A stretch of DNA of 64,000 nt from a virus. The position numbers and the translations under genes were made by a program. The notes beneath the pieces are model-generated. The model saw only the letters and a list, made by a program, of their open reading frames with translations. It made no database searches and was not told the origin of the DNA. Below, piece after piece: positions 10,646 through 46,443 of this stretch (position 1 is its first letter; the number at the start of each line of letters is the position of its first letter). The stretch is taken from the IMG/VR virus record IMGVR_UViG_3300045988_160931, positions 1 through 64,000 of that record; one strand, 5' to 3'.

Positions 10646-10840
10646 ATGAGTAAGAAGAGTAGAAAGATGAAGAAAACAAATCTGATGAAGTGGGATGATC
10701 TTATTCGGAATACAAAAAAGATTACACCGTTTTGCGACAAAGACGGTAATGTAATCTGGGGAACGGATAAAAATGCAAAGAAGAAAAAGAGATTAAAGGA
10801 TGGTGGTGAGAATTGTCAAGAAGAGAACAACAATATTTAA
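10646..10840 (+). CDS. small lysine-rich protein
   Basis: ATG 10646 follows AAAGAGAG; its stop overlaps the next start (TAATG). Confidence 0.5.
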   Translation: MSKKSRKMKKTNLMKWDDLIRNTKKITPFCDKDGNVIWGTDKNAKKKKRLKDGGENCQEENNNI

Positions 10841-11382
10841 TGACGGAGAGCCAAAAAGCCTTAGTCTCTAAGCATCATAATCTGATCTACGGTTTTATGA
10901 GAAAGCATGAAATGATTCGCACTGACAAAACCGATGTTTCTAATTGGTATGGTATCCTTGCAATTGCTTTAATCAAAGCCGGATATAATTGGAATGAAGC
11001 AAGAGGTAGCTTTACATCATACGCATGGGGCTTAATGGCAAATGCGTATAAGGATGAGATTAAATCAAGAAAAAGAAGTAAACGAAACAGTATAGTTGTA
11101 AGTCTTGACGAGCCTATTGGTGTTTCGGATGGAGAAGCAGTTTGTATTGGCGATATCATTCCGGATGAATCTTCTGAAAATGACCTGGAAAATTACGTGA
11201 TAAATAAGATTATGTTTATCAATGTATTTGCTGTTCTTTCTCAGAAAGAAGAAGTGGTTGTGGAATCAAAAATGAATAGTCATACAAACAGAGAGATCGC
11301 ACAAAAGTTGAACTGCTCTGAGCAGAATATTGGATATATGATAAGAAAAATCCGTAAGAAAATATCGGTATATTTTGATTGA
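10840..11382 (+). CDS. sigma-70 family (ECF-size) RNA polymerase sigma factor
   Basis: About 180 aa. Region-2-like FTSYAWGLMANAYKDEI and a region-4 HTH (TNREIAQKLNCSEQNIGYMIRKIRKKI). Confidence 0.75.
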   Translation: MTESQKALVSKHHNLIYGFMRKHEMIRTDKTDVSNWYGILAIALIKAGYNWNEARGSFTSYAWGLMANAYKDEIKSRKRSKRNSIVVSLDEPIGVSDGEAVCIGDIIPDESSENDLENYVINKIMFINVFAVLSQKEEVVVESKMNSHTNREIAQKLNCSEQNIGYMIRKIRKKISVYFD

Positions 11383-11399
11383 CTTTAGGAGGTATCGGC

Positions 11400-11645
11400 A
11401 TGGAGGGCAAAACAAATAATAAGAATACAAATTTTACAGAAGAGGTTGTAAAGGGCTTAGGTGATTTAAGCGCTAAGTTCGTGGAACAGGTTGTAAAATT
11501 TGCAGACGATATCGGCGTTAATCGGACGCAGGCAGTAAACATTTGCGTAAAGGTTTTATCTTATGCAATGAGTAAGAATGTCAGCTATGACAAGTATGAA
11601 GTGGAGGACGATGACAATGGGAAAAACGCAGGCAGCTCAAAGTGA
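11400..11645 (+). CDS. hypothetical protein
   Basis: AGGAGG SD, ATG 11400. Confidence 0.6.
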   Translation: MEGKTNNKNTNFTEEVVKGLGDLSAKFVEQVVKFADDIGVNRTQAVNICVKVLSYAMSKNVSYDKYEVEDDDNGKNAGSSK

Positions 11646-11904
11646 TTCAAGTAATGAAATTACTTTACGTGATTTTATGCAGAATGACACAAAGAAGGTA
11701 ACGGAACTGATTAACCAGTATCCATATCAGATTCCAGTACAGGCAATTGCCGAGTGGTGGAAGTGTGATGCAGATAGCATCCGTAGAGCATTGGAACAGT
11801 CCAGTGTTTTTGGAATCGGGTTCCGGCAGGCTGGGAAATTGAACCGTGCATTTGTAATCCCTACAGGAAAATTTGTTCGTTGGTATCTTGGTATGAGAGA
11901 ATGA
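11617..11904 (+). CDS. hypothetical protein
   Basis: GGAGGA 11603-11608, then ATG 11617 (or 11611). Confidence 0.55.
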   Translation: MGKTQAAQSDSSNEITLRDFMQNDTKKVTELINQYPYQIPVQAIAEWWKCDADSIRRALEQSSVFGIGFRQAGKLNRAFVIPTGKFVRWYLGMRE

Positions 11905-16776: not shown

Positions 16777-16818
16777 ACTTTAGAAAAGCAATAAAAAATC
16801 GTATTATATAAGTATAAG
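16777..16818 (+). promoter_or_regulatory. conserved bipartite promoter motif, copy A
   Basis: ACTTTAG-N16-CGTATTATATAAGTATAAG; ends 24 nt before ATG 16842. Confidence 0.55.
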
Positions 16819-16841: not shown

Positions 16842-17369
16842 ATGATTGATTTATTAGCAAAGGGGTATATATCTCAGGATTTTTTTGAATGGTTAAAAGA
16901 GAATGGGTTTACAACTGCTCCGGCAAGTACAAAATATCATGGTGCCTGTGAAGGTGGATTGTATAAGCATTCTAAAGCAGTTATGGATACACTTGTAGAC
17001 TTTACTAAGAAACTGGGGTTACAATGGCAGGACGAGCGTTCTCCGTACATCGTAGGTATGTTTCATGATCTGTGTAAGATAGATCAGTACAAGATAAAAG
17101 AAGAATTTTATAACAATAACTGTAATGCGAAAATCTCTACCAGTTATGAGTATAATGAAAATGTTCTTCTAAAAGGACATGGGTTAAAGTCTGTAATGCT
17201 GTTGAGTCAGTTTATGACATTGACAGAAGAAGAAATTATGTGTATTCGATACCATATGGGAGCATATGAAAAGGATGATTGGGTACAGTTCGATTTGGCG
17301 ATTAAAAAATATCCGAATATATTATTTACACATACTGCGGATATGTATGCAAGTAAGCTAATTCAATAA
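16842..17369 (+). CDS. HD-domain phosphohydrolase
   Basis: KYHG...GLYKHS, GMFHDLCK and RYHMG metal-binding motifs. Confidence 0.75.
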   Translation: MIDLLAKGYISQDFFEWLKENGFTTAPASTKYHGACEGGLYKHSKAVMDTLVDFTKKLGLQWQDERSPYIVGMFHDLCKIDQYKIKEEFYNNNCNAKISTSYEYNENVLLKGHGLKSVMLLSQFMTLTEEEIMCIRYHMGAYEKDDWVQFDLAIKKYPNILFTHTADMYASKLIQ

Positions 17370-17387
17370 TAGGAGACAGTGAATAAA

Positions 17388-17828
17388 ATGCGTGATATTT
17401 TATTTAGAGGTAAGAGAGTTGATACAGGAGAATGGGTTGAGGGATATTTTTGCAAATATCCTAATCAGTTTAAGGGATATTTTTGTAAAAATCCTAACCA
17501 GTTTAGTGGATTTTTAAAGCCTCATATTTTCGTATCATCGTATGATGAAGAAAAAGAAACCGGAAGTTGTACAGCTTACCCTATTATTCAAGATACTGTG
17601 CAACAGTTTACAGAGCTATTTGACAGAAATGGTAAGAAAATTTTTGAGGGCGACATTGTAGATATATTGACCGAAAATGAAGAACGAGGTGTCATAACAT
17701 ATGAGGACGGTGGTTTTGTCGTGAAGGCATCGACATTTGTAGTTGATTTCATGTCAAATATAAATGGAGAAGATGTAGAAGTCCTTGGAAATATTGTGGA
17801 TAACCCAGAATTATTTGAGGAGGAATGA
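17388..17828 (+). CDS. YopX-family protein
   Basis: ILFRGKR...NGKKIFEGDIVD...VLGNIVDNPELFEE (alternative start GTG 17379). Confidence 0.7.
   Translation: MRDILFRGKRVDTGEWVEGYFCKYPNQFKGYFCKNPNQFSGFLKPHIFVSSYDEEKETGSCTAYPIIQDTVQQFTELFDRNGKKIFEGDIVDILTENEERGVITYEDGGFVVKASTFVVDFMSNINGEDVEVLGNIVDNPELFEEE
17441..17506 (+). repeat. 33-bp in-frame tandem duplication
   Basis: Unit 17441-17473 vs 17474-17506 with 4 mismatches; encodes GYFCKYPNQFK / GYFCKNPNQFS. Confidence 0.85.
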
Positions 17829-17829
17829 A

Positions 17830-18087
17830 ATGAAAGCTAAATGGGAAACAGTAAGTAACTTAAAAAAGATTGGCAGTAAAAAATGTAATTTGCTTATTGG
17901 CAAATGTACAAATTGTGGTTTTACAGTATGTGATATATTAAATCATTTTGATTTATACAATCATTGTCCTAATTGTGGTGCAACAATTTACAGGTCGGGT
18001 TCCCCAAATACAAATGATAGTGAGAATGATACAAATACAAAAAACATATTCTTATGCCAGAACCGCAGAATGGTTGGTTTGGGGTAA
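17830..18087 (+). CDS. zinc-ribbon protein
   Basis: GAGGAGGA SD; CTNCG...CPNCG. Confidence 0.6.
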   Translation: MKAKWETVSNLKKIGSKKCNLLIGKCTNCGFTVCDILNHFDLYNHCPNCGATIYRSGSPNTNDSENDTNTKNIFLCQNRRMVGLG

Positions 18088-18353
18088 CGAGTGATAATAA
18101 ATGGTTTGTTATTATTCGACAGCCAGATTCAGATGAATACCTAATGGTATATGAGAATGGTGGATATGATGTAGGAACGGTATCTGAGGTATTCGATGAG
18201 TCAGAACACGATTTTAATAGATATGGTAAATGTATAGATGGTAATAAGATTATTCGACTTATAAATGCTATCAGCTTTGAGTATGCAAAGTGTTGCCCAG
18301 TCTATCACAAAGATATTATCTGGGAAAGGGGGATAAAGCAATGGCAGGCGTAA
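18054..18353 (+). CDS. hypothetical protein
   Basis: ORF overlaps its neighbours in operon style. Confidence 0.55.
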   Translation: MPEPQNGWFGVTSDNKWFVIIRQPDSDEYLMVYENGGYDVGTVSEVFDESEHDFNRYGKCIDGNKIIRLINAISFEYAKCCPVYHKDIIWERGIKQWQA

Positions 18354-18646
18354 ACATCCTACCCATACCTTCGGTATATGTTTCACTATCAGAACTCAAA
18401 GACGGAGAGACGTTTACATTCAGATATGGTGATAGAGAGCATCGTTTCACAGACCATATTTATATGTGCGTGGACGAAAACTATGTTGGTGAAAGAATTG
18501 TGATTGACTTAACTGTCTTTGATTCTTTTTACATTGGCGATTCCGAATCAATAGATGTGCGGAGAGTTAAGTGTAAAATTGTTGCCGAAGATGATGAAAA
18601 AGAGATAGTTGAGAAATTGTATGATGTAATATCTAAATGGAAATAG
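18341..18646 (+). CDS. hypothetical protein
   Basis: ATG 18341 follows AAGGGGGA. Confidence 0.6.
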   Translation: MAGVNILPIPSVYVSLSELKDGETFTFRYGDREHRFTDHIYMCVDENYVGERIVIDLTVFDSFYIGDSESIDVRRVKCKIVAEDDEKEIVEKLYDVISKWK

Positions 18647-18716
18647 CACTGTATAGATATTACACAAGCGAAATCTTCTATGATATGAGAGAAAGAAGTT
18701 GTGGAGGTATGATGTA

Positions 18717-19016
18717 ATGGCAAGTATTAAAGACTTAAAGAGAATGTGCAGAAACCACGAGGAGTGCAATGGCTGCCCTTTATATATTGGAGGATTTGCA
18801 CAGTGTACACCAAGTGAGTTTCCTGATAATGTTGATGAAATCATTGACAAATGGGTATCCGATCATCCTGTAAAAACATATGCTATGGATTTTCTTGGGA
18901 AATTTCCAAACGCACATGTGGATAGATATAAAACTCCTAAAGTTTGTAGAGTCATTATTTATGGTAACAACTGTCCTAAGGAATGCCATATAGTGTCAAG
19001 TTGTGCTGACTGTTGA
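18717..19016 (+). CDS. cysteine-rich hypothetical protein
   Basis: ATG 18717 lies 9 nt after GGAGG. Confidence 0.6.
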   Translation: MASIKDLKRMCRNHEECNGCPLYIGGFAQCTPSEFPDNVDEIIDKWVSDHPVKTYAMDFLGKFPNAHVDRYKTPKVCRVIIYGNNCPKECHIVSSCADC

Positions 19017-19035
19017 GGTATGGAGATAAAGGAAG

Positions 19036-19380
19036 ATGACTGAAAAACTGAAACCGTGCCCGTTTTGCGGAAGCGACGAATTAAAAATACTTTGCGGAGA
19101 GTGCGGCGTATTCGTAGGCTGTACGATTTGCGGTTGCTGTACTCAAGCTGTCCCATTATCCGCAACTTATGCAGCTAAACCAGAAGCAATTGCCGCATGG
19201 AACCGAAGAGCCGGTGTTGCCCCCAATAAGGCACAATGGGAGATTTGCTGTGACGGCTATTACCCGTACTGTAGTAACTGCCACAAAGAACCGCAAGGGC
19301 GAGAGATGACGAGGTACTGCCCCAACTGCGGAGCAGAGATGTGTAATCCAAAAATTCCGAAAAGGAGCGAAAGAAAATGA
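19036..19380 (+). CDS. Lar-like (restriction alleviation family) zinc-ribbon protein
   Basis: N-terminal LKPCPFCGSDEL signature; C-terminal CPNCG. Confidence 0.6.
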   Translation: MTEKLKPCPFCGSDELKILCGECGVFVGCTICGCCTQAVPLSATYAAKPEAIAAWNRRAGVAPNKAQWEICCDGYYPYCSNCHKEPQGREMTRYCPNCGAEMCNPKIPKRSERK

Positions 19381-19760
19381 GTAAAATCAAGTTGAAGTCT
19401 TGTCCGTTCTGCGGCAGCACAAAACTAAAGATTGACAGCAAGCGCACTTTCAATTACAACAAAAGACATTGCTCTGTTACAGTAAGATGTATGAAATGTC
19501 ATGCAAGAAGTCCTGTTGTTGGAATCAATCTGGAAAAGAATCAGTACAATGAGCGTGAACTTTGTGAATCACAAGTAACGGAATCTTGGAACAAACGAGT
19601 ATCAGAACTTGAACATAGACCTATAGTCCATGCACATTGGGCTTTTCGTACAAGTTATAGTTTCAAATGCTCAAATTGTGGAGAAATCGGATATATAATT
19701 TCACATCGATTCTGTCCGAACTGTGGTGCAAAGATGGATATGAAGGGGGAAGATAAATAA
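19377..19760 (+). CDS. Lar-like zinc-ribbon protein
   Basis: LKSCPFCGSTKL signature; C-terminal CPNCG; ATGA start/stop overlap. Confidence 0.6.
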   Translation: MSKIKLKSCPFCGSTKLKIDSKRTFNYNKRHCSVTVRCMKCHARSPVVGINLEKNQYNERELCESQVTESWNKRVSELEHRPIVHAHWAFRTSYSFKCSNCGEIGYIISHRFCPNCGAKMDMKGEDK

Positions 19761-19978
19761 TGACTGAATTTGTTTCAAAAATTAACAGGAATGAATATGA
19801 AATCACTTTCAAAACAAGCATCTGGTCTGAATACAAAGAGATTCAAGAAGCTATGAGATCTATCATAGATAATCACAAAACAGCACCTATACACTTAAAT
19901 ACAAATACTTGCGTAAGCTGCGGTGCAGAGATTCCTGAAGGTTATCATGTTTGTCCAATATGCTCGAAGGAGTGGTAA
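19760..19978 (+). CDS. zinc-ribbon protein
   Basis: CVSCG...CPIC. Confidence 0.6.
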   Translation: MTEFVSKINRNEYEITFKTSIWSEYKEIQEAMRSIIDNHKTAPIHLNTNTCVSCGAEIPEGYHVCPICSKEW

Positions 19979-19981
19979 TTT

Positions 19982-20320
19982 ATGGGAAATATTTGTAAGA
20001 TATGTGGTAAATCTAGGTTTATGTTTTCATGGGAAGATATTTGCTACACTTGTAAGCAGAAGAAAGACCTAGCAGAAATGCAGCAGAAAATAAAAAATAA
20101 AGAAAGTGACATTGATACATTCTCAAATAGCTATATCATTTGCCCGTATTGTGGTAATGCGTTAGATACTGAGTATGGATATGAGGACTTTCCAGAACTA
20201 TATGAAGAAGGGGATCACGAACTAGAATGTAGTGGGTGTGGAAAGACGTTTATAATGGAGACAATGGTATCATACTCCTATGAAACACGTAAACCTGATG
20301 AATCGTCATTGAGATTATAA
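19982..20320 (+). CDS. double zinc-ribbon protein
   Basis: CKICG..CYTC and CPYCG...CSGCG. Confidence 0.6.
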   Translation: MGNICKICGKSRFMFSWEDICYTCKQKKDLAEMQQKIKNKESDIDTFSNSYIICPYCGNALDTEYGYEDFPELYEEGDHELECSGCGKTFIMETMVSYSYETRKPDESSLRL

Positions 20321-20342
20321 ATAAACTAAGGAGAATTTTCAT

Positions 20343-20612
20343 ATGATTACAAATTTTCGAGACTGGAAGATGTTTGCGCATGAGTTCTATGTGTACGAAA
20401 TAAACGATCATCGTAGATATGAGATACTGGTTGAATTTTATGAACAGTACACAAATATACTCAACGCTATTGTGACACTGTACATCTCGGGATATTACTA
20501 TGATAAGAGATTAGAATCTGGTAAATGCTATAACAGACATCGCCTAGTTGATTCGAAACCGCTTCATGAAGCATTAGAGGTCGCACATAGGCATTATGAA
20601 ACAAATTTTTAA
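20343..20612 (+). CDS. hypothetical protein
   Basis: AAGGAG SD. Confidence 0.6.
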   Translation: MITNFRDWKMFAHEFYVYEINDHRRYEILVEFYEQYTNILNAIVTLYISGYYYDKRLESGKCYNRHRLVDSKPLHEALEVAHRHYETNF

Positions 20613-20632
20613 TAAGGATGGTGTTACCCGTA

Positions 20633-20812
20633 ATGAACGTAAAAGAACTTATTGAACAGTTACAAAGATTTGACGAAGATACCGAAGTACGAATCATTGA
20701 CATAGATTCTGATCCGTTAGATGGTGCTACAGGATTGGAATGCTCAAATACATATATGCTTACTCATGGTGCGACTGGCAAATCACTTGTATGTATTATT
20801 CCGGCGATGTAA
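20633..20812 (+). CDS. hypothetical protein
   Basis: ATG 20633 follows AAGGATGGTG. Confidence 0.55.
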   Translation: MNVKELIEQLQRFDEDTEVRIIDIDSDPLDGATGLECSNTYMLTHGATGKSLVCIIPAM

Positions 20813-20851
20813 TGTTATTTAATATTATTTTTGTGTAAGGAAATGGTGTTT

Positions 20852-21085
20852 ATGAAAAATGCTATTAAAATGAGCGAATGGGCTTTCAGAACGCTCACAG
20901 AAGAAGAAAATAAAATGCTTACCGATACAATCGATACAATTTGTAAAAACCACGAAGAAGGATCGTGGGCGAGAATATACTATGCGATTACAACAACAGT
21001 AACTCATATATTGTCTCAAAAGCATGCAGATGAAATGTTAGAGGAACTTGATAAAAAAGAAGATGGAACAAATGACTGTGAATGA
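20852..21085 (+). CDS. hypothetical protein
   Basis: ATG 20852 lies 9 nt after GTAAGGAA. Confidence 0.55.
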   Translation: MKNAIKMSEWAFRTLTEEENKMLTDTIDTICKNHEEGSWARIYYAITTTVTHILSQKHADEMLEELDKKEDGTNDCE

Positions 21086-21193
21086 GTTGATTCAGCCGGC
21101 ATTGTGAAAACGGTAACCCCGATTTGGGAAACTGCGGAAACATTACGCCAACGGTACGAAACATTAATTATTAATTGATTGGATGTGTTTGTT

Positions 21194-21457: not shown

Positions 21458-21654
21458 CATACAAAATGCGGCACTGCCCTAATTGTGGTAGGTGTTTGTT
21501 TGAAAATCGTAATTGATGTCATTAGCATTGACAAAATTTATGTGGAAGTATTATGTACAGATAATGTGTTATGCTACGAAGGCGTGACTTTTGAAGAAGC
21601 GGAAAAATGGAGTGGTATGATGCAAGCGTTATTCTGGCGTAGGAGATGAGAACT

Positions 21655-35752: not shown

Positions 35753-35796
35753 GCATTTGAAAGATGTATAAGTCCTAAAAGGAGAAAAAGATAATT

Positions 35797-36435
35797 ATGG
35801 CATATTACTGGTGCAGCTTGTTCTTCGATGAATATGGGACTTTATTGGGGAGAAACAATATTGTTTATGGTGAAACAGAACAAGAGTTTATCCGGAATAT
35901 GTCACGTTATCTCCGAGGGCATTATGGAACACATCTTGCCATAAATGATTATGATATGCGATTGAAACGCATGGAAGCAGAACAGAATATGTCAGGGGCT
36001 GACCTCGGCTTGTATTCTCCAGTATATCCAAATTCAGACAACGATGATGCTGTTTACTTTATAAGAGATAAGCAGCTTTGCAGCTTTGAGAGAGGGAAAC
36101 TTCGGGTGCTTGACCTGCGAAACTACCACGAAGCAATTCTTGCTCATGCAGTATGCTTTGCGGAAGAACTGCTGAGATACAGCCGTAAGAAAAAACAGGG
36201 TAAGCGACACAAAAAATGTTGGAATTATCACTGGCACAAAGGAATTCGGAATAAACTGATACTGGATTCCAAAGGAATGCTCAGAGCAAAGTATTTTGCT
36301 GGTTTTCTCTATGAATATCGGTTTGACCCGAAGCTTTATAAGTCAGAAAACAACTGGAAAGAGAATAAGAAATGCAGACATCAATGGGAAGTTCATATCG
36401 ATCGTCACATAGACACAATGCAGTATATTGGATAG
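35797..36435 (+). CDS. hypothetical protein
   Basis: AAAGGAG SD. Confidence 0.65.
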   Translation: MAYYWCSLFFDEYGTLLGRNNIVYGETEQEFIRNMSRYLRGHYGTHLAINDYDMRLKRMEAEQNMSGADLGLYSPVYPNSDNDDAVYFIRDKQLCSFERGKLRVLDLRNYHEAILAHAVCFAEELLRYSRKKKQGKRHKKCWNYHWHKGIRNKLILDSKGMLRAKYFAGFLYEYRFDPKLYKSENNWKENKKCRHQWEVHIDRHIDTMQYIG

Positions 36436-36593
36436 AAATACTCAACGGGGATTATGGTAACTGCACAGGACACAACTACATATGTAGTAACTGTGGTTAT
36501 GAATTTACTTGTTTTGGCGGTACACCATTTGAGTATGGTATATTCCGGTGCAGACGATGCAAGGCGAAAATAATTGATATAAAAAGGAGTTGA
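36372..36593 (+). CDS. zinc-ribbon ORF overlapping the preceding gene
   Basis: CSNCG...CRRCK. The only canonical starts lie 52-64 nt inside gene 35797..36435. Confidence 0.35.
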   Translation: MQTSMGSSYRSSHRHNAVYWIEILNGDYGNCTGHNYICSNCGYEFTCFGGTPFEYGIFRCRRCKAKIIDIKRS

Positions 36594-37678
36594 TTAAAAT
36601 AGAAGAACTATTAGATCAAGATCTATCTGAGCTAGACAAGCACATATCAGATGCAATGCACAGAATTGAAAGATTGTATTATGAAACTGACGGGAAGTGT
36701 TATCTATCGTTCAGCGGTGGGAAAGACAGTACAATCGTGCTTGCTGTTATAAAACTGTGTGAAGATATTGGAACGATTCCGAAGAATGCGATTCCAGCGG
36801 TTTTCTGCGACACAAAGATAGAATTAGATGCTACAGTTGATTTCGTGCATTGGGTGAAAGATAACTGGTATAACAATGTGCAGTTTATTAAAACTGAGAA
36901 ATCATTCGCACAAGTTATCAAAGAGTATGGGAAACCGTTTCGCAGTAAAATGAAATCAAAAGGATTACACTACTACATCACAAATCCGGCATATTTGACA
37001 GCCAGAGCATTGTATGATGATGCTGTATGCAAGTCAGCTAAAATGAGGTTATCCAATAAAGACTTTCATGTACTACACTCAAATTTTTCAATTCAAATTT
37101 CTGATAAATGTTGTGATGTGATGAAGAAGAAACCATTTATCAAATATGGGAAAGATAATGGCATGATCGGTTACTTTTCTGGAATGCGAATGTTTGAGGG
37201 TGGGAAACGTCATATTGTTTTTGAAAAACGGATGAATTCCGGCGATAAAAGGCCATGTACACACGTTTCTGATGGTGTAACATCGGTATCCCCAATTTTT
37301 GATTGGGATGATGAAATTTGTGAAGAATTCATTCAGAAGTACAACGCCCCGCTGTCTAGGGCGTATACAGAGTATGGAGAAGAACGGACTGGGTGTTTCC
37401 TATGTCCGTATGGCTTGAACGTAGACAAGCGGCTTGAATCACTACATACCTACGAACCAAACAAATATAAAGCAGCGTTGTACTTCCTAAAAGATGTGTA
37501 CATTGCACAAGGTGTTGAACTTCCATTTGATTCGGACTATATGAAAGAGTACAAAGAAAAGTGGATTGAGTATGAGAAGATGCGGTATAAAATGTTGAAG
37601 AAGTATCGCCCTGACTGTATGATCTGCAAGAAGTACGAGAAAGAGCATGGACAATCTGCTCAGAAGAAATTATTTTAG
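36590..37678 (+). CDS. PAPS reductase / PP-loop ATPase family protein
   Basis: PP-loop SFSGGKDS; C-terminal CFLCPYG. TTG 36590 abuts the SD, whereas ATA 36599 lies 9 nt after GGAG. Confidence 0.8.
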   Translation: MIKIEELLDQDLSELDKHISDAMHRIERLYYETDGKCYLSFSGGKDSTIVLAVIKLCEDIGTIPKNAIPAVFCDTKIELDATVDFVHWVKDNWYNNVQFIKTEKSFAQVIKEYGKPFRSKMKSKGLHYYITNPAYLTARALYDDAVCKSAKMRLSNKDFHVLHSNFSIQISDKCCDVMKKKPFIKYGKDNGMIGYFSGMRMFEGGKRHIVFEKRMNSGDKRPCTHVSDGVTSVSPIFDWDDEICEEFIQKYNAPLSRAYTEYGEERTGCFLCPYGLNVDKRLESLHTYEPNKYKAALYFLKDVYIAQGVELPFDSDYMKEYKEKWIEYEKMRYKMLKKYRPDCMICKKYEKEHGQSAQKKLF

Positions 37679-37690
37679 GAGCGATAAACA

Positions 37691-38185
37691 ATGTTAGTTC
37701 CAGCAGTCCTATATAAGGACGAAATCAAAAGAAAAATATTAGAGTATAAATACACAAATGATATGATGTACTACTCTGGATGGCTAGGAGATTCTATTCC
37801 AAATATCGATGATGACAGCGAAGATAATTGTACAGTACAATATGCAATTGTTGACGGCGATGATCTAATCGGCTACTTTACATATATGATGGACTGGTAT
37901 ACATCATGTGCAAACTGTTTTGGTCTGTTCTCATTCGACAGAGGAAATAAAATCATTGGGCTGGATGTCCTCAGAGAATTAAAGAAGATTATTAAAGAAT
38001 ACAATGTTCATAGAATTTCCTGGAGGATGGTAAGTGGTAATCCAGTCGAACGTCACTATGACAGATTCTGTGACAAGTATGGCGGGAAGAAATTTGTACT
38101 TACAGATGCTATCCGAGATAGATCAGGTAACTATCATGATGATATTATCTATGAGATTATTTTTCAGAAATCTAAGGATATATAA
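37691..38185 (+). CDS. GNAT-like acetyltransferase-fold protein (tentative)
   Basis: Size and the pattern LIGYF...GLDVLRELKKIIKEYNVHRISWRMVSGNPVERHYDRF. Confidence 0.5.
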   Translation: MLVPAVLYKDEIKRKILEYKYTNDMMYYSGWLGDSIPNIDDDSEDNCTVQYAIVDGDDLIGYFTYMMDWYTSCANCFGLFSFDRGNKIIGLDVLRELKKIIKEYNVHRISWRMVSGNPVERHYDRFCDKYGGKKFVLTDAIRDRSGNYHDDIIYEIIFQKSKDI

Positions 38186-38200
38186 AATAGAGGTTTTATC

Positions 38201-39100
38201 ATGCAAAGATTTAGATTGGATTTTGAAAATGGTAGAAATGGCAAATTTTATTGCACTAGTTTGGAACAATTAAAACGTACATTCCCAGATGCAATAAGCA
38301 TAATCCCTATTTCCGATTTATCACATGAAAAATACTGTAAAATGCTATTAAATAAAGCAAGAGATAATGTAAGGGTATACGAAAAGCGAGAATCTATTAT
38401 ATACGCCTTTGAGTTTGGACTTCAACATGGGAACATTCAAATTGAATTGATGCAAGACAAAGAAGATAATACATTTTATGATTATTGCAAATATAAGTTT
38501 CAACCAATGTCAAAAATGATAATATCGATAGTTTGGGATATAAGTAATCCTAAATTAGTATGGGAGAAATTCTTTGAAAATACTGAAATCAGTTATAAAG
38601 TCATTGGGTTTTATAAGGCTGGAACTAATATGCCTAAACTAAAAAAACCAAAAGAACTATCTGGAGTAAATGGGAATAGTATTCCTTTTTCATATTCCAA
38701 AGGGAAGGTAAAATGCCAATTTCAATATTTTGTGAAAAACAATGACTTGTACATTAAATCGAATGATTTCTTCTCTCCAATGTTTAGACCAAACGATGAG
38801 GATATTGGAATGCCATTAGGATATATAATGAAAAAATATTTTGGGAGAGCTAGAAGTGAAAAATTCATATATCCAGATGGGTGGGGTAGCGTTGTTATTC
38901 AGCAGAAAGCATGGTTGAAGTTTGAAAACATTGTAAAAATTGTAGATCAGATGAATTATGTTGAACTTTCGCATTTTGCAATGAGTCTTATGCGAGAAAA
39001 ACATCATTTTCAATATTATTTCATGCAGGACGTAGACTGGATAAATATGTTCGAAAATTTATTTAAGCAATTAAAGAGTAAAAAGGAGACAAATATATGA
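38201..39100 (+). CDS. hypothetical protein
   Basis: ORF with SD. Confidence 0.65.
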   Translation: MQRFRLDFENGRNGKFYCTSLEQLKRTFPDAISIIPISDLSHEKYCKMLLNKARDNVRVYEKRESIIYAFEFGLQHGNIQIELMQDKEDNTFYDYCKYKFQPMSKMIISIVWDISNPKLVWEKFFENTEISYKVIGFYKAGTNMPKLKKPKELSGVNGNSIPFSYSKGKVKCQFQYFVKNNDLYIKSNDFFSPMFRPNDEDIGMPLGYIMKKYFGRARSEKFIYPDGWGSVVIQQKAWLKFENIVKIVDQMNYVELSHFAMSLMREKHHFQYYFMQDVDWINMFENLFKQLKSKKETNI

Positions 39101-39420
39101 CACTAAAAGAATTTATTGAAGAGTTTATCCCGGATTCAAGAACATTTATTCGCCTTATCCATGTTGTAGAAAAAGAATGTGTGGACGTGGAGTTGGATTC
39201 AACACGCTGCGCAGTTATAAAGAAGCGAAAAGAATATGAGCGAATTCCTCTCCGGATAGTAAATGGAGAAGAAAAGACAATGGCTACGGCAGAACTGATT
39301 ATGTTTGATGATTACTATAAGAGATACCATGATTGCGTAGTTAGAGGATTGATTGATAGTTGTTCACCTATTGAAGAAGTCGATACAAATGCAGTGAATA
39401 TCATTATTGATAACGAATAA
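39097..39420 (+). CDS. hypothetical protein
   Basis: AAGGAG SD; ATGA overlap. Confidence 0.6.
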   Translation: MTLKEFIEEFIPDSRTFIRLIHVVEKECVDVELDSTRCAVIKKRKEYERIPLRIVNGEEKTMATAELIMFDDYYKRYHDCVVRGLIDSCSPIEEVDTNAVNIIIDNE

Positions 39421-39450
39421 TCCCATTGTAATCATAGATTGGAGCAAGAA

Positions 39451-40659
39451 ATGCGAAAAACAAATGAAGAACTTCAAGCAATATTAAAACGAGAAAACTA
39501 TAAAAGACTTTGGTCGTGGTCGAGATTGGAATGTTTTCGGAATAGCCCGTATGAGTACTTCCTAAATTACATTAAGCATGAGCCTAAAGACAGACAGAAT
39601 TGTATTTATGCTCCAATTGGTTCTGTAGCACATGAAGCACTGGAATTATATTATACGAATCAAATCGACAGAGATAAAATGCTAGAGAGTTTTGAAGATG
39701 GTTGGTTTAATGCGACTACTATCTTAGATTTGAAGTTTGATCGAAATGACGAAAGTAAAAACGAGACTATTAAACAGAAATATTATGTTGACTTGCAATT
39801 GTTTTTCAAAAATCATCGAGATATAAAAAGGTACAAGCCTTTAATGGAGCAGTTCGTAAAATATAAGATTGATGATAATCTGTTTCAGGGCTATATTGAT
39901 TGCTGTTTTAAGGATGAATCTGGTTGTTTCAATATCATTGACTTCAAGACATCTACCATGTATACAGGTAAAACGCTAGTAGAACATTCTGGACAACTTA
40001 CCGTATATGCAATGGGTTTAATGCAAGCTGGTGTTTCAGAAGATAAGATTAAGATCGGGTTTAATTTTTTGAAGTACTGCACTGTTACATATACACAGGC
40101 GAACGGTAAAACAAAAGATAGAAATATAGAGAGAAGTAAATTAGGAGAATCGTTACAAACAAATGCAAAGATGTGGCTTAATAAAATTGGGTATAGCGAA
40201 GAAGATGCCGATTTCTATTTGAAACAATTGATTGATAGTAATGATATATCTGTTCTTCCGGAAGATGTGCGTATCAAATATATAATGAATGATTGCTATG
40301 TGTTTATTCCCTTTGATGATGTTCTAAGAGATAAGTGGATAGATATTATTCGGAAAACAATTAAAGATATTGAATTAAGAGAATCTGATTATAAAACAGA
40401 TTTCAACGAGAAAGTCTTTTATGATACAGATGAACAATTAAAATCCCAGAGTTATTACCTTGCCACCTTGTGTGAGTATAGCATTGAGAAACATAAGCCA
40501 TATAAGGAATGGCTTGACAAAATTGATGCGAAAAAGAATGAATTTGGCTTGTTTAATAATGTTGGAGTTAATTCAAGTAGCTTGTCTATGGTAGACAAAA
40601 ATATAAGTAATGATAGAAGCCAAAACGATGATTTGTCTTGGCTTGATGATATTATTTGA
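39451..40659 (+). CDS. PD-(D/E)XK (RecB/Cas4-like) nuclease with an acidic C-terminal tail
   Basis: GYIDCCF...IIDFKTS...GQLTVYAMG nuclease core; C-terminus NDDLSWLDDII. Confidence 0.65.
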   Translation: MRKTNEELQAILKRENYKRLWSWSRLECFRNSPYEYFLNYIKHEPKDRQNCIYAPIGSVAHEALELYYTNQIDRDKMLESFEDGWFNATTILDLKFDRNDESKNETIKQKYYVDLQLFFKNHRDIKRYKPLMEQFVKYKIDDNLFQGYIDCCFKDESGCFNIIDFKTSTMYTGKTLVEHSGQLTVYAMGLMQAGVSEDKIKIGFNFLKYCTVTYTQANGKTKDRNIERSKLGESLQTNAKMWLNKIGYSEEDADFYLKQLIDSNDISVLPEDVRIKYIMNDCYVFIPFDDVLRDKWIDIIRKTIKDIELRESDYKTDFNEKVFYDTDEQLKSQSYYLATLCEYSIEKHKPYKEWLDKIDAKKNEFGLFNNVGVNSSSLSMVDKNISNDRSQNDDLSWLDDII

Positions 40660-40681
40660 AATAAATTATGGAGTTTGATAT

Positions 40682-41399
40682 ATGTATAAACTTTTGCATG
40701 GTGATTGTCTCGAACTGATGAAAAAGATTCCAGATAAGTCTATTGATATGATTTTATGTGATTTACCATATGGAACAACAAAAAATAAGTGGGATGTTAT
40801 TTTACCTTTCGATTTGTTGTGGGGGGTATAGCCGCATAATTAAAGATAATGGGGCTATTGTATTATTTGGTGATGGCTGTTTTACTGCACAATTGATATT
40901 ATCTAATTTGAAAATGTGGCGGTATAATTTGATATGGGATAAACAGCGAGGGTGTGACTTCTTAAATGCGAATGTGAAACCATTAAAATCTCATGAGGAT
41001 ATTATAGTATTTTATAAGAAAAAACCTGCATATAATAAACAATTATGGTATTCAAAACCATATAAAAAAACAAAGAATGGCAATTTATCTAGTAATTATG
41101 GAGAACGAAAGTCGGCGTGGACTGAATCTTTGGATGGGGCAAGGAATCCGTTGTCAATTCTTTCATTTGGTCGTGATTCAAGTAAGTTACATCCAACACA
41201 AAAACCAGTAGCCTTACTTGAATACTTAATTAGAACTTACACAAATGAGGGTGAATTGGTTCTTGATAATTGTATGGGTTCTGGTTCTACAGGTGTTGCT
41301 TGTATAAATACGAATAGAAATTTTATTGGAATGGAATTAGACGATAAATATTTTAGTATTGCAAAAGAAAGAATTGAAAAAGCAAATGGTGAGGTGTAA
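40682..41399 (+). pseudogene. N6-adenine/N4-cytosine DNA methyltransferase interrupted by a +1 frameshift at a G6 tract
   Basis: Frame A (ATG 40682) carries DLPYG and stops at TAG 40829. Frame B (40758..41399) continues [16 protein letters not shown]...TQKP...DNCMGSGSTG. Removing one G from 40821-40826 fuses them. Confidence 0.75.
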
Positions 41400-41405
41400 T
41401 AAATA

Positions 41406-41540
41406 ATGTGTGCAACAATTTCTTTGATTATAGCTGCTACATCTGTATTTTCTGGAATTGGGTTATTTACAATGTGTTTGTGTAAAGCAGCTAGTGATGC
41501 AGATGATGCTGTAGAGAATATGATGTACAATCAAGAATGA
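41406..41540 (+). CDS. small membrane protein (44 aa)
   Basis: ATG 41406 lies about 9 nt after GGTGAGGTG; hydrophobic N-terminus. Confidence 0.45.
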   Translation: MCATISLIIAATSVFSGIGLFTMCLCKAASDADDAVENMMYNQE

Positions 41541-41567
41541 ATAAAATAAAGAAAGAGGTATTATATT

Positions 41568-41897
41568 ATGAATAAACAAGGCACAACACTTATTATTAAA
41601 GATAGAGGAACAGGTAAGAGCACACAATTGATTTATACAAGCGCTTCAACACAATATCGAATTGTCACTCCTACTAAACAATCAATTAGATATTTAATGT
41701 ATCTCGCAAATTGTTTAGGGTTGGAAATTCCAACACCTATGACAATAGAAGATTATAGAAACAAAAGGAAAGTACCTAATGAGTGTATTCTTATTGATGA
41801 AGGGTATGATCTAATTGGAGAAGCTGTTAGTTCTTATATTGGAGCTAATGTTGTAGCAATTACTTTATCTGATAAAATAAAAGAAACAAATAATTAA
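41568..41897 (+). CDS. small P-loop protein
   Basis: Walker A DRGTGKST and Walker B-like ILIDEG. Confidence 0.6.
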   Translation: MNKQGTTLIIKDRGTGKSTQLIYTSASTQYRIVTPTKQSIRYLMYLANCLGLEIPTPMTIEDYRNKRKVPNECILIDEGYDLIGEAVSSYIGANVVAITLSDKIKETNN

Positions 41898-41916
41898 ACA
41901 AAGGAGTCTATATAAG

Positions 41917-44007
41917 ATGAGTGATAATTATACAATTCTTCATTTACATAGTATGGATTCAAATCCGTATAGTGGTGTAAAAGTAGATTCAACTGTCCAT
42001 TATCAAAAATATATTGATGAAGCTGTAAAGTGTAAAATGAAAGCGATTGCTTTTACTGAGCATGGATGTGTCCTACATAATATCGGGAAAAAGCAAGCTT
42101 GCGATAAAGCTGGATTAAAATACATTCATGCAGAAGAATTTTATATCACAGAATCATTATCAGATATAAAAAGAGATAATTATCACTGTTGCTTATTTGC
42201 AAGAAATTATAAAGGGGTAAGAGAATTAAACCGCTTATCGTCCATCTCTATGAATAAAGATGATGGTCATTTTTATTACAACCCTAGAATAACAATCGGC
42301 GAACTATTAGCTACTTCGGATAACATCTTAGTTTCTACGGCTTGTCTTGCTGGTATCTTATCTAAAGGAACAGATTCTATTAAAAAGAAGTTTTTGCAGT
42401 TTATTATAAAAAACAAACATCGATGTTGGCTTGAAATTCAACCACATAATTTTGATCGTCAGATTGATTATAATAAATTGCTTGTTCTTTTGCATAAGAA
42501 GTATTCTATAAAAATAATTGCTACTAGTGATATTCATGCAATAACGCAAAAGCAATTAAAATCAAGAGAATTGATGCAGAGAGGGAAGAATGCGAATTTC
42601 AATGATATTAAAGATGAAATCGAGTGTGATTTGAAATTTAAGAATTATTCTCAATTAGTTGAATCATTTGAAATCCAGAATGCTGTACCAAAAGAAATTT
42701 ATATGGATGCAATTGAAGAAACAAACAGATTTGCAGATTTAATAGAACCATATGATTTAGATTATAGCCCAAAATACCCTAGACTATACAAAAATCCAAT
42801 TGAAGAGTTTAAGAAAAGAATTGTTTCCGGTATAAAAGAACACAAACTTAATACACTCTCTAACTATAAGACTGAATATATGCCTAGAATCAAAGAAGAA
42901 TTTAATACATATAAGAAAAATGATGCAATTGATTTTATGCTGCTTGATTCAGATTATAAAAATTGGATGAGAGAAAACAAGATGAGATATGGCATTTCCA
43001 GAGGTAGTGTATCTGGAAGCCTGATCGCCTATCTCCTTCATAATACAGAGATTGATTCAGTAAAGTATAAATTGAACTTTTCTCGATTCATGAATCCAGA
43101 ACGTCAATCACTTGCTGATATTGATACAGACATTTATAAAGAGGATAGATATAAAGTCCGAGAGTATTTCTTTAATCGAGAAGGATTATATTGCTGTAAC
43201 ATTGTCACTTTCAATACATTAGGACTTCGTTCTGCGATAAAAGACATTGGCAGAGCATACGGCTTAACTCCTGCCGAAACGCAAAGTATATGTGATTCAA
43301 TTCAAAAGGATGAAAATGAAAAAGAATACGTTCCAGAACAGATTATCAAACAGCATGAAGAAATGTTTGAATATGTATATGAGGTTATTGGTGTTGTAAC
43401 TTCTTTAGGTAGACACGCTGCTGGAATTGTTTGTTCTCCAACAGATGTCTCATATGACTTTGCAACATTATCTATAAAAGAAGATAACAGACCAGTTTCT
43501 CAGATAGATATGCACGAAATAGATTCTTTGAATTATGTAAAAATGGATTTACTTGGTCTAAATGCTGTCGGTCTGATTTATAAGGCGTGTGATTTAGCTG
43601 GTATTGAATATAAAATCCCAGAGAATACTGACTTTAACGATAAAAATGTAATTGAATCTATCGCCGAAGATACAACTATGATATTCCAATTTGAATCTGG
43701 ATATTCTAGTGACTGTCTAAAGAAAGCTTTAAGCCCAGAAACAATTAGTAAGATCAAACAAAAGAATAAAGATGCTAGTTATATTGATATTATTTCAATG
43801 ACATCTGGTGCAATTCGTCCGGCTGGAGAGTCATATCGAGAACAACTTTTTAATGGAGAGTACAAAGACAACGGGAATGCTGTATTAAATGATTTTCTTG
43901 CACCAACACTAGGGTTTTGTGTTTATCAAGAGCAAATAATTGATTTCTTACATGAATTTTGCGATTTTAGAATGGGACAGGCTGATATCGTGCGGCGAGG
44001 GTTTGCT
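41917..44007 (+). CDS. dnaE: DNA polymerase III alpha subunit (DnaE-type), exon 1
   Basis: PHP domain LHLHSMDS...FTEHG; palm motif ADIDTDI; ends ...ADIVRRGFA at the proposed 5' splice site. Confidence 0.85.
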
Positions 44008-45169
44008 AAATTTTTGGCGTGTTAATCAGAAATGAATAACATTATTAGAGGGCAAAATCGGTGAAGGTTAAATAATGGCATAAATTAAAAGAATAAGGAT
44101 GGCGCTTATAAAATCAAGAATAACAGAATTACAAAAGAATGAAATTAAAGAAATGTACAAAAGTGGCATGACGTGTAAAGAGATTTTTCGAAAGTTTTCA
44201 AATATCTATAGCTGTGAAGAATCGATTCAAAAAATAGTAAGGAATATGGGCATTTCAAGAGGTAAATATAAAAAACCTGTTGTAGTCGATGAAAACTATT
44301 TTGAATGTATTGATAATGAGCGTAAGGCTTATTGGGTTGGTTTTTTACTTGCAGATGGATGTATTATAAAATATAAAAACAAATCTGATACATTAAAATT
44401 AGAGTTAAGTGTAAAAGATAAGTATATTATAGAATCATTTGCGAAAGATATTAAAACAGATAGAAAAGTAAGAGATTATAAATATAGTAAAAAGCACAAT
44501 GCTCAAATACAAATTAAGTCAAACAAAATATCAAATGATTTAAGCAAATATGGAATAGTGCCAAATAAAACATTTAAGATTGATGGTATAAAAAATATTC
44601 CAATTGAATTAATACGACACTTTATAAGAGGATATTTTGATGGAGACGGTTGTGCTTATTTATATAAACCTAAAGATCAAAATAAACATAGACTTACAAT
44701 AACATTTTGTGGGACAAAAGATTTTTTGAATGATCTGAATACCACTCTATCTGCACAGGCATTTACAGAAACAAGAACATTAATTGACATGAATAAATAC
44801 GGATGTAACGTGTTTAATTTAAGATATATCGGTAATAACGATATTAGGAATCTATTTAATTATATGTATAAAGATGCCACTGTATACTTAAAAAGAAAAA
44901 GAGAAAAGTTTATTACGTTTTTTAACGAACGAAATTAAAAGCCATTACATACTAATACCGAGGTAAATTGAAAAAGTAAAAATTTTCAATCACCGTAGAG
45001 CGTAGTAGGTGAACCTTTTTTTAGAAAGAATATAATCCTACCAAGAGTGTCCACTACCTAAACATGAATTGTAGGTAAAAATGTACGCCGACCTATATTG
45101 AAAAATATAGAAGTGGATGTGTGAATTGACACACTATTAATAGATAAAAAGCTCCACGATAACATAGTG
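44008..45169 (+). mobile_element. group I intron carrying a homing endonuclease
   Basis: The 5' exon ends in U and the intron ends in G. GGCAAA 44051-44056 can pair with exon TTTGCT (U-G at the junction). Stem-rich 230-nt 3' part. Exon fusion restores RRGFAKKTGTGK. Confidence 0.7.
44099..44938 (+). CDS. LAGLIDADG homing endonuclease (double-motif)
   Basis: YWVGFLLADGC and FIRGYFDGDGC motifs. Confidence 0.85.
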   Translation: MALIKSRITELQKNEIKEMYKSGMTCKEIFRKFSNIYSCEESIQKIVRNMGISRGKYKKPVVVDENYFECIDNERKAYWVGFLLADGCIIKYKNKSDTLKLELSVKDKYIIESFAKDIKTDRKVRDYKYSKKHNAQIQIKSNKISNDLSKYGIVPNKTFKIDGIKNIPIELIRHFIRGYFDGDGCAYLYKPKDQNKHRLTITFCGTKDFLNDLNTTLSAQAFTETRTLIDMNKYGCNVFNLRYIGNNDIRNLFNYMYKDATVYLKRKREKFITFFNERN

Positions 45170-46369
45170 AAAAAAACAGGAACAGGAAAATATATTCCAA
45201 TCATAAAAAATGGTGGATATATGGAGGACATTCACGGGGATCAAGATGATAGATATATCAAGGGATTTATATCTATCGCACAAGAAAAATACAATATGAA
45301 AAAAGAAGATGCAGAAATAGCGATTAAGGATTTTTTGGATGTTATAGAATCTGCATCATCTTATCTATTTTCAAGAAATCATGCTGTCCCATATAGTATG
45401 ACAGGATACATTATTGGTTGGCTTAGATATTACTATCCTCTTGAATTATTTACTGCTGCATTAAATGTATATAAAGACAACGCAGAGAAGATTGCATCGA
45501 TCAAAGAGTATATTCGCTCAAAAGGATTCCAAATAAAGAATATTAAATTTGGGAAGTCTAAAGCAGAATACTTTATGGATAAGTCAGAAAACTCAATATA
45601 TCAGGGAATTGAGAATATATCATATTGTAATGCTCAAATAGCAGATGAATTATTTGAATTGTCAAAAAACAAATACGACTCATTTATTGAATTGTTAGAT
45701 GATATTACATCAAAAACATCTGTGAATATAAGCCAGTTGCATATTCTTACCGGATTAGATTTCTTTTCGGATTATGGGAAGAATAAAAAACTTCTCAAAG
45801 TGATCGATCTATATAATGGTGTAAAAGAAAAGAACAAGACAATTCTTCCTTCATTAAGAACTTGTAATCAAATAAAGAAAATAAAAATTGAAAGTTATTC
45901 CAAATTTGGGCTATCTGAATTTCTTATTAAGAAGTATTCTAAAAAGGAAACTGCTGCACAATATTCTAAGATCGATAATATTGGTTTATTAAACGAGATG
46001 TGCGATAGACTACCAGAAGAATCAATGACGTTGCAGGAAAGTGCAAAATTTCAAAAGGAATACTTGTCGTTCGTACAGATCGATTCTGCATTAGATGTAG
46101 ACGAAAATTATTACATGGTAATTGATTTTAAGGTGTATAAAGATAAATCACGCCCTTACTTAACACTGCAAAACTTACATGACGGCACAAAAATCAAATC
46201 AAGAATAAAGAGTTCAAGGGTATTTACAGCAAAACCATTCGATGAAATGTCAATTCTTTCAATCCCGGTTTTAGAGATGGATTTCAAAAAGAAATGTATT
46301 GATGGGGAATGGAAAGAAACAAAGGAGTTAGAATATATTCTGACAAATTATGAGGTCGTAAACGTATAA
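45170..46369 (+). CDS. dnaE: DNA polymerase III alpha subunit, exon 2
   Basis: In frame with ORF 45167..46369; continues the DnaE fingers and C-terminal domains. Confidence 0.8.
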   Translation, partial: KKTGTGKYIPIIKNGGYMEDIHGDQDDRYIKGFISIAQEKYNMKKEDAEIAIKDFLDVIESASSYLFSRNHAVPYSMTGYIIGWLRYYYPLELFTAALNVYKDNAEKIASIKEYIRSKGFQIKNIKFGKSKAEYFMDKSENSIYQGIENISYCNAQIADELFELSKNKYDSFIELLDDITSKTSVNISQLHILTGLDFFSDYGKNKKLLKVIDLYNGVKEKNKTILPSLRTCNQIKKIKIESYSKFGLSEFLIKKYSKKETAAQYSKIDNIGLLNEMCDRLPEESMTLQESAKFQKEYLSFVQIDSALDVDENYYMVIDFKVYKDKSRPYLTLQNLHDGTKIKSRIKSSRVFTAKPFDEMSILSIPVLEMDFKKKCIDGEWKETKELEYILTNYEVVNV

Positions 46370-46401
46370 TAAAAAAACAACTTACATTAGCTTGTTCGAT
46401 T

Positions 46402-46443
46402 CTTTTAGTTTTAATGCTAAAAATCGTATTATAATAGTGTAAG
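46402..46443 (+). promoter_or_regulatory. conserved bipartite promoter motif, copy C
   Basis: CTTTTAG-N16-CGTATTATAATAGTGTAAG; ends 34 nt before ATG 46477. Confidence 0.55.

Follow-up and report, generated by a model that had tools for sequence, protein, structure and literature searches.

A bipartite motif that recurs ahead of the replication and nucleotide metabolism genes in a 64,000-nucleotide stretch of gut phage DNA (positions 1 to 64,000 of IMG/VR record IMGVR_UViG_3300045988_160931; hereafter, the window) very probably represents a family of promoters for a middle gene class comprising replication, nucleotide metabolism and tRNA genes, to judge from its sequence and placement. The window also encodes a small sigma-70-family protein, and the best single hypothesis, to which about an even chance is given, is that this phage sigma factor reads the motif as a middle-promoter class. 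We infer both that transcription starts at these sites and that the phage factor, rather than sigma-A of the host, is responsible. Sigma cascades are a well-known kind of phage system, probably represented here in an unstudied lineage of uncultured gut phages. The copies of the motif in the window and the sigma gene are as follows.

16779..16818, plus strand: promoter copy 1, with TTTAG at 16779-16783, core AAAAATCGTATTATATAAGTATAAG at 16794-16818 and predicted transcription start (+1) at 16814; the gene that follows is the HD phosphohydrolase gene (ATG at 16842), 28 nt from the predicted +1
27010..27049, plus strand: promoter copy 2, with TTTAG at 27010-27014, core at 27025-27049 and predicted +1 at 27045; the gene that follows is the first of the replication module (27112), 67 nt from the predicted +1
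46404..46443, plus strand: promoter copy 3, with TTTAG at 46404-46408, core at 46419-46443 and predicted +1 at 46439; the gene that follows is the RecD2-like gene (46471), 32 nt from the predicted +1
2577..2611, plus strand: degenerate fourth copy, TTTAT-N10-AAAAATCGTATTATA-AAGTAGGAG, with TTTAT in place of TTTAG and one base fewer after the -10 element
10813..11382, plus strand: sigma-70-family factor with regions 2 and 4, of 180 amino acids from the ATG at 10840 or 189 amino acids from the TTG at 10813

Three sites had been described in the initial annotation, and their coordinates, sequences and identical spacing were all verified. TTTAG-N16-CGTATTATA has three exact matches in the window (16779, 27010 and 46404), all on the plus strand. 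With up to two mismatches allowed the count rose to six; 100 dinucleotide-preserving shuffles averaged 0.88, and none reached six. The common block is longer than first noted and consists of TTTAG, a variable spacer of 10 nt and a 25-nt core, AAAAATCGTATTATAWWAGTRTAAG. The window contains the 15-mer AAAAATCGTATTATA four times; apart from an unrelated set of ACGGAAAATTT repeats, it is the sole non-coding word of at least 12 nt found there at least three times. A position weight matrix was built from the four canonical copies, three from the window and one from relatives; the three window sites score 47.6 to 56.9 bits by construction, as they were used to build it, and the best score over 20 shuffled windows was 12.9 bits. 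The matrix scan proposed initially was run on the window and recovered the three sites and the copy at 2577 (2577-2606; 19.3 bits), with everything else below 7 bits. The original count of three copies is therefore too low, given the degenerate copy and a further canonical copy in relatives: the lineage has four canonical copies and one variant. A supposed weaker relative near 48850 (TATAG-N14-CGTATT) exists as a sequence but is absent from the top matrix hits, and was rejected as a member of the family because of its low matrix score.

The motif can be laid out as a promoter with TTTAG(A/T) as the -35 element, TATTAT as the -10 element and a spacer of 17 bp. The predicted start is the only variable purine of the core (AGT-R-TAAG) and lies 28, 67 and 32 nt before the start codons at copies 1, 2 and 3, respectively. 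All canonical copies are intergenic and have the same orientation as the genes downstream of them. In the window they would head three putative transcription units.

16842..26955, plus strand: unit 1, HD phosphohydrolase, YopX, many small open reading frames (ORFs) and a class V aminotransferase
27112..46369, plus strand: unit 2, a gene of unknown function, Sak4-like AAA_24, DnaB-like helicase, primase, C5 methylase and a split DnaE
46471..54103, plus strand: unit 3, RecD2-like helicase, NrdD, NrdG, dUTPase, ThyX and RNA ligase, with a terminator at 54139-54171

As first proposed, the sites precede major blocks, and the motif stands at the head of replication and nucleotide metabolism genes. 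Most of the accompanying gene labels (YopX, Sak4-like AAA_24, DnaB-like, primase, RecD2, NrdD and HD phosphohydrolase) were supported by Pfam or PHROG matches; the exception is SSB for 27112-28329, the only match of which is PHROG 2367, a family of unknown function. No plus-strand intrinsic terminator was found in unit 1 ahead of 27047.

A fifth copy, canonical in sequence, lies outside the window in the relatives IMGVR_UViG_3300045988_164820, ERZ827528 NODE-164 and OWPP01000508. It is found approximately 300 nt upstream of 8 to 10 tRNA genes, in the same orientation, and an exonuclease gene follows. As the signal is common to protein operons and a tRNA array, it is most simply a transcription signal and not a translation signal. 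The array itself, seen in several relatives (L121 9251-11579, minus strand; also L220 and L224) and absent from the window, has 8 to 10 genes with specificities for Leu, Ser, Lys, Met (two), Tyr, Gly, Gln and Pro.

Conservation of the motif differs sharply from that of its surroundings. Among paralogous copies, 30 positions are identical (TTTAG and the 25-nt core), and the 10-nt spacer and flanks are essentially unrelated; an identical core within diverged spacers and flanks points to selection and away from a recent duplication event. In orthologous copies from relatives, variation is confined to the spacer and flanks (30 of 248 columns, against 0 of 120 for the core; Fisher p = 6e-6), although this contrast is inflated, most of the relatives having been found through a match to part of the core. 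One locus free of this bias (L001, fetched via the sigma protein) has sites 1 and 4 intact, and the sequence just upstream of site 1 is replaced. A scan of IMG/VR with the 15-mer gave mostly chance hits, and 23-mer scans turned up only a single viral contig and a few nearly identical contigs from gut metagenomes, along with several chance hits. Among the 23-mer matches set aside, three (L214, L218 and L222) are bacterial loci downstream of a putative YbeY-like gene, as read from its translation, and three others (L212, L226 and L227) are unrelated loci.

Two other readings of the sites were considered and rejected. TTGACT at 27005 could serve as the -35 element of site 2, but its spacer to TATTAT would be 22 nt and the hexamer is missing at the other sites. 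The reverse complement of CGTATTATA holds a perfect TATAAT, but there is no conserved -35 element on that strand, transcription would be antisense to every gene, and copy 4 is the only one for which the scan lists such a site (2628-2601).

The motif was initially described as unlike the TTGAC[AT]-17-TATAAT promoters found elsewhere in the phage, and this description holds. The evident host-type (sigma-A) promoters are as follows.

974..1002, plus strand: TTGACT-17-TATAAT, early class
6215..6243, plus strand: TTGACA-17-TATAAT, matching the consensus at 12 of 12 positions
7637..7665, plus strand: TTGACT-17-TATAAT, the nearest strong promoter upstream of the block containing the sigma gene
56102: TTGACT-17-TATAAT

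These promoters match at 11 or 12 of 12 positions and are clustered at 1 to 8 kb and at 56 kb. Between 8 and 54 kb the plus strand has a single site matching at 11 or more of 12, at 33649, and this lies inside coding sequence.

Identification of the ORF at 10840-11382 as a sigma-70-family protein encoded upstream of all canonical copies, part of the initial annotation, was confirmed by NCBIfam TIGR02937 (residues 6-177, 54.3 bits; cut-off, 42.9), PHROG 351 "RNA polymerase sigma factor" (3e-18) and Foldseek. Pfam matches to the individual regions are borderline (region 2, PF04542, 23.9 bits with a cut-off of 24.0; region 4, PF08281, 25.4 bits with a cut-off of 25.7), and residues 132-177 match a GerE-type helix-turn-helix (28.5 bits; cut-off, 23.5). 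The TTG at 10813 is the start called in other assemblies and fits the N termini of the family, and the gene is translationally coupled to an upstream ORF of 64 amino acids by a TAATG overlap. The AlphaFold2 model (mean predicted local distance difference test score, 92.3) consists of two helical domains joined by a short linker with a beta-hairpin. The best 50 of 491 Foldseek matches in the PDB (E ≤ 10) are all sigma factors, with Bacillus subtilis SigH first (E = 1e-6), followed by SigB, SigA and sigma-S; template modelling scores are low (0.31 to 0.39) because the relative placement of the two domains differs. Sequence searches of the PDB gave weak LuxR-type helix-turn-helix matches only.

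The phage sigma belongs to a family with 1187 cluster representatives at E < 1e-3, characterized by conserved NHNLIY and FSTxAY motifs. Members have 170 to 190 amino acids and occur in big gut phages; most of the 80 best viral loci retrieved come from contigs of 80 to 170 kb. Beyond a cluster of 96% identity, the next relative is only 41% identical. In relatives with identical promoters, substitutions in the sigma factor fall in the linker, and regions 2 and 4 are almost invariant. The gene is located in the early region, with the sites at 974, 6215 and 7637 upstream and co-oriented, and no plus-strand terminator was found between 7637 and the gene. No second sigma factor was found in the window or in the loci of relatives by tblastn with both sigma proteins of phage PMBT24 or with the family hidden Markov model. 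No informative NCBIfam match was obtained for the small flanking ORFs (10646-10840, 11400-11645 and 11611-11904), a search of limited reach for anti-sigma factors, which are too diverse for one to be excluded in this way. There is no autoregulatory copy of the motif ahead of the sigma gene, the only upstream copy being the degenerate one at 2577, 8 kb away.

Together, these features suggest the following scheme. Host sigma-A polymerase would transcribe the early region first, from the near-consensus promoters at 974, 6215 and 7637, and early transcription would include the phage sigma gene (10813/10840-11382). Its product would then join the host core polymerase and direct it to YTTTAG-N10-AAAAATCGTATTATAWWAGTRTAAG, with TTTAG as the -35 element, CGTATTATA or TATTAT as the -10 element and the start at the purine R. 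The units switched on in the window would be the HD/YopX block, the replication module and the RecD-Nrd-dUTPase-ThyX block, and those elsewhere in the genome would be the tRNA array and the exonuclease block. Hairpins at sites 2 and 3 may insulate the units from upstream read-through. The sigma family is common in large gut Firmicutes phages, and no member has a known promoter. The present lineage offers an unusually clean candidate regulon of four identical sites and one variant, in which the -35 element, the -10 element and the predicted start are all defined. A confirmed pairing would assign a specificity to the family and provide a portable orthogonal sigma-promoter pair for Clostridia.

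Part of the regulon first proposed for the middle genes stands, namely, a distinct promoter class, its position at the head of blocks and a sigma gene in the early region. Dependence on the phage sigma stays inferred, because the motif is also a 9/12 sigma-A match (TTTAGA-17-TATTAT). Several points weigh against recognition by the phage factor. Sites 1 and 2 are legal, if weak, sigma-A sites (9/12), which sigma-A could use alone or with an activator. Neither the same nor a related motif was found in PMBT24 or in 80 IMG/VR loci with sigma homologues of 25 to 32% identity, nor was the motif found on contigs with homologues of 34 to 42% identity; covariation of sigma factor and motif is not demonstrable, because no homologue at 25 to 42% identity comes with the motif. 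The two always occur together, but in one narrow lineage, which amounts to a single phylogenetic observation. The remaining 25 to 45 kb of the genome, outside the window, might hold another sigma factor or polymerase. Finally, a terminator-like hairpin at approximately +3 of site 2 should also challenge the transcripts of site 2 itself, and a simple promoter model leaves this unexplained.

It is accordingly possible, and tentatively entertained, that the promoters are read by host sigma-A, alone or with a phage activator or appropriator acting at TTTAG in the manner of T4 MotA/AsiA, and that the phage sigma serves to manipulate the host or to transcribe other genes (e.g., late ones beyond the window). 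In TTTAGA-17-TATTAT the critical -10 positions (A2 and T6) are retained, and the 17-bp spacer is optimal. PMBT24 and the CB phages have sigma-A-like TTGAC[AT] promoters before replication genes despite a homologous small sigma factor. The window encodes other candidate DNA-binding proteins (ORF6N, Bro-N, ANT, pRha and LytTR), and a published scheme would class the window sigma as "SigK-like", a group proposed to act on host dormancy and not on core phage functions (PMC9429907). Nevertheless, likeness to sigma-A sites does not explain the repeats, because 9/12 matches are no commoner in the window than in shuffled sequence, and site 3 (TTTAGT) is not among the 60 sites listed for its region at that threshold. 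The evident sigma-A promoters of the phage are near-perfect consensus matches that look quite different. Furthermore, the motif has 30 invariant positions, including AAAAATCG upstream of the -10 element, with TCG (-15 to -13) where an extended -10 has TGn, and an invariant initial transcribed sequence. A dedicated factor is favored because sigma-A needs neither the invariant AAAAATCG nor the invariant initial transcribed sequence. If sigma-A does read the sites, the finding reduces to ordinary duplicated phage promoters.

PMBT24 (L123) encodes two sigma-like proteins (record coordinates 61341-61985 and 85831-86418); the homologue of the window sigma is annotated as a hypothetical protein, and the second, annotated "SigK", is encoded between dnaE and recD. 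PMBT24 uses TTGAC[AT]-type promoters and has no comparable repeat. Loci of other sigma homologues show repeats of different kinds, including AATAACAAGAAATACAAG, TTAATACGGCTATATAC and extended ribosome-binding sites. In a different lineage of large gut phages with a sigma homologue (L130, L133, L134, L136, L145 and others), the 18-mer AATAACAA[GT]AAATA[CA]AAG occurs 4 to 6 times per 20 kb (e.g., L145 4452, 12880, 14711, 19165 and 19226), on the coding strand only and directly 5' of ribosome-binding sites. In phages with a sigma 34 to 41% identical to that of the window, TTAATACGGCTATATAC is intergenic (L229 5663, L230 204 and 1218, and L232 2143), and one of these positions lies upstream of a small operon ending in the sigma gene. 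This sequence may be a counterpart promoter, as it has a CG dinucleotide followed by TATAT, like the window motif; no conserved -35 element was seen.

The initial annotation likened the motif to promoters of extracytoplasmic function (ECF) sigma factors, such as SigW of B. subtilis (TGAAAC-N16-CGTA, ECF group 4). CGTA, the N16 spacing and a small two-domain sigma are indeed shared, but the -35 element is YTTTAG in every copy, without the defining AAC, the conserved block extends far beyond CGT, and there is no autoregulatory copy; the limited search of the flanking ORFs recognized no anti-sigma factor. The ECF assignment is not supported by the protein either: the curated model PF07638 (Sigma70_ECF) scores 13.4 bits, below its cut-off of 21.1, and none of the best 50 of 491 Foldseek matches is described as an ECF sigma.

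The best named protein models are those of SigK and SigH (NCBIfam SigK, 39.8 bits; SigH-like, about 37), with scores far below their equivalog cut-offs (about 300). The region 2.3-2.4 motif of the phage sigma, FS(T)xAYxCMxN, resembles the ATYAxRCIENE motif of SigE/K. The -10 element of SigK-type promoters in B. subtilis is CATAnnnTA. It is very improbable that a host alternative sigma factor, of the mother-cell SigE/SigK type or a TcdR-like group 5 factor, reads the sites, which would tie replication to the developmental or stress state of the host. CGTATTATA agrees with the SigK-type -10 at five of the six specified positions (C[GA]TAnnnTA has the format of that element), in line with the best named similarity of the protein, and TTTAG[AT] and ATTATA resemble the group 5 elements TTTACA and GTTATA (PMC4031146). 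The -35 element mismatches both host types, however, having no conserved AC and G for C in TTTACA, and a host factor would be superfluous to a phage that encodes a sigma of the same broad type. The group 5 factors themselves (TcdR, BotR, TetR and UviA) share with the window sigma a similar protein size and a clostridial and mobile-element context; the likeness of their promoters is one of elements only, spacing aside (PMC4031146), there is no family-level sequence match, and the window sigma has SEQ and not the SRQ marker. The SigH promoter (AGGA...GAAT; PMC7438776) is unrelated to the window motif.

Recognition by the phage's own sigma would place the system, in logic, closest to the sigma cascades of SPO1 and of phiEco32 and 7-11. 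The middle promoters of SPO1 have the consensus AGGAGA-N17-TTTNTTT, and the middle/late promoters of phiEco32 and 7-11 rely mainly on an extended -10-like element. SPO1 is likewise a Firmicutes phage with a small sigma-70-family factor encoded in its early region (gp28, for middle genes; gp33/34 act on late genes), and host core polymerase is redirected, in a temporal cascade, to conserved bipartite promoters, distinct from those of sigma-A, before replication-type genes (PMC13401047, PMC9429907). It differs in motif and shows no detectable sequence relationship; furthermore, the -10 element here is still sigma-A-like, and the role of the sigma factor here is a proposed one. As with phiEco32 gp36 and the sigma factor of phage 7-11, the candidate promoters here are few, nearly identical and recognizable in the genome sequence alone (PMC4331800, PMC8948821). 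Those phages, however, are Gram-negative podoviruses, and a fixed -35 pentamer is also conserved here.

Hairpins accompany several copies of the motif. Two were located in the window.

27047..27086, plus strand: site 2 hairpin, 12 bp followed by a U run, beginning at approximately +3; -17.6 kcal/mol, z = -5.3
46373..46451, plus strand: site 3 inverted repeat, 17 bp (46373-46389/46435-46451), followed by a U-rich tail

The site 2 hairpin is the strongest terminator-like site on the plus strand within 3 to 54 kb, and in relatives its stem is preserved by a G-U pair where A has changed to G. Read-through from the upstream unit is probably stopped by this hairpin; transcripts from site 2 might pass it by antitermination or sigma retention, or the hairpin might act as a 5' stabilizer. 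The site 3 repeat encloses copy 3 in its loop, with a folding energy of -27 kcal/mol for the whole region (z = -6.6). RNA beginning at the predicted +1 of site 3 is without significant structure (z = 0.3), and both arms are present only in transcripts arriving from dnaE. The structure could thus terminate read-through while sparing transcripts begun at copy 3. Such an arrangement would be pointless unless transcription began within the loop, which lends indirect support to the promoter reading. At site 5 the conserved TGTAAG forms part of a 7-bp hairpin, and no hairpin was found at site 1. The stem-loops are not conserved between copies, differing in sequence and position.

The hairpins at sites 2, 3 and 5, together with a 355-nt indel in L001 that ends at the 5' edge of site 1, raise the alternative that the elements are not primarily promoters and instead represent a recombination or module-shuffling cassette, a site for a replication or packaging protein, or an RNA processing or terminator element. 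They recall the promoter early stem-loop (PeSL) cassettes of T4, with which they share near-identical promoter copies and stem-loops at module boundaries and a copy beside an indel (PMC4122927). This alternative is nonetheless quite improbable. PeSLs are themselves promoters, and they carry sigma-70 early promoters and a conserved stem-loop; here the stem-loops vary, site 1 lacks one, and the promoter departs from the sigma-A consensus type. A sigma-type promoter best accounts for the strict orientation, the distance to the start codon, the two-part layout around a variable 10-nt spacer and the placement ahead of the tRNA array.

The degenerate copy at 2577 (with AAAAATCGTATTATA at 2592) lies antisense within the N-terminal half of a LytTR-domain gene, points at the early genes and is conserved in relatives.

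2220..2786, minus strand: LytTR-domain regulator gene (PF04397, 26.3 bits; cut-off, 22.6), divergent from the early operon

If copy 4 is active, antisense RNA would run over the start of the LytTR gene and into the early operon with the sigma gene, and a positive feedback loop may be envisaged as speculation. A fuller version, which is doubtful, combines two elements. The phage sigma would fire copy 4 antisense through the LytTR gene into the early operon that encodes it, as a self-reinforcing commitment switch in a phage that carries integrases; in addition, the promoters would be wired into terminator hairpins (in the loop at site 3; with a terminator from approximately +3 at sites 2 and 5), so that only sigma-initiated transcripts enter the modules. 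The unrelated ACGGAAAATTT repeats cluster around the divergent control region and the LytTR-domain gene. Between 2100 and 5605 there are 13 matches with at most one mismatch (e.g., 2122, 2235, 2350, 2845, 3064, 4537 and 5595), 11 of them on the plus strand, against 3.2 expected, and no shuffle reached 13. They are candidate operators or iterons for the LytTR-domain regulator.

The window has a G+C content of 34.7% and consists of a single long plus-strand array of phage genes from 3.4 to 57 kb, followed by lysis and tail genes on the minus strand. No near-identical phage or close relative was found among GenBank phages. The nearest cultured relatives are Enterocloster phages of approximately 100 kb, e.g., PMBT24, with a sigma identity of approximately 26%. 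Close uncultured relatives occur in human gut assemblies (IMGVR_UViG_3300045988_164820, 107 kb; ERZ827528 NODE-164, 89.7 kb; and several Logan and ENA contigs), and the motif-carrying lineage as a whole has a DNA identity of at least about 80%. A search of the entire window against Rfam gave no known RNA family.

Two tyrosine recombinase (Phage_integrase) genes are present (54338-55528 and 7747-8472), and the phage may be temperate or carry a mobile cassette. The gene at 54338 has its own promoter-like site and strong terminators on either side (54139-54171 and 55703-55740). The dnaE gene is split (41917-44025 and 45221-46369) by an insert carrying an ORF for a LAGLIDADG endonuclease (44099-44938). 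In some relatives 44004-45178 is wholly missing, and in one only 44083-44938 is missing, a pattern consistent with an intron-like element whose homing endonuclease is optional; Rfam at gathering thresholds gave no match to a group I or group II intron. The nrdG frame (51047-51565) has no ATG, GTG or TTG ahead of its radical-SAM CxxxCxxC cluster, and the probable start is a non-canonical ATA or ATT that follows the ribosome-binding sequence AAGGTGAG. The region 9200-9320, ahead of the Bro-N gene (9355), carries a perfect hairpin (TTTTTTTCGTGTAG...CTACACGAAAAAAA) and after it three copies of TATTTACA in direct orientation, spaced about 17 to 18 nt apart. The DUF7666 gene (14467-15225) contains an internal 15-nt tandem coding repeat of the GNWNSGD type at 14798-14860.

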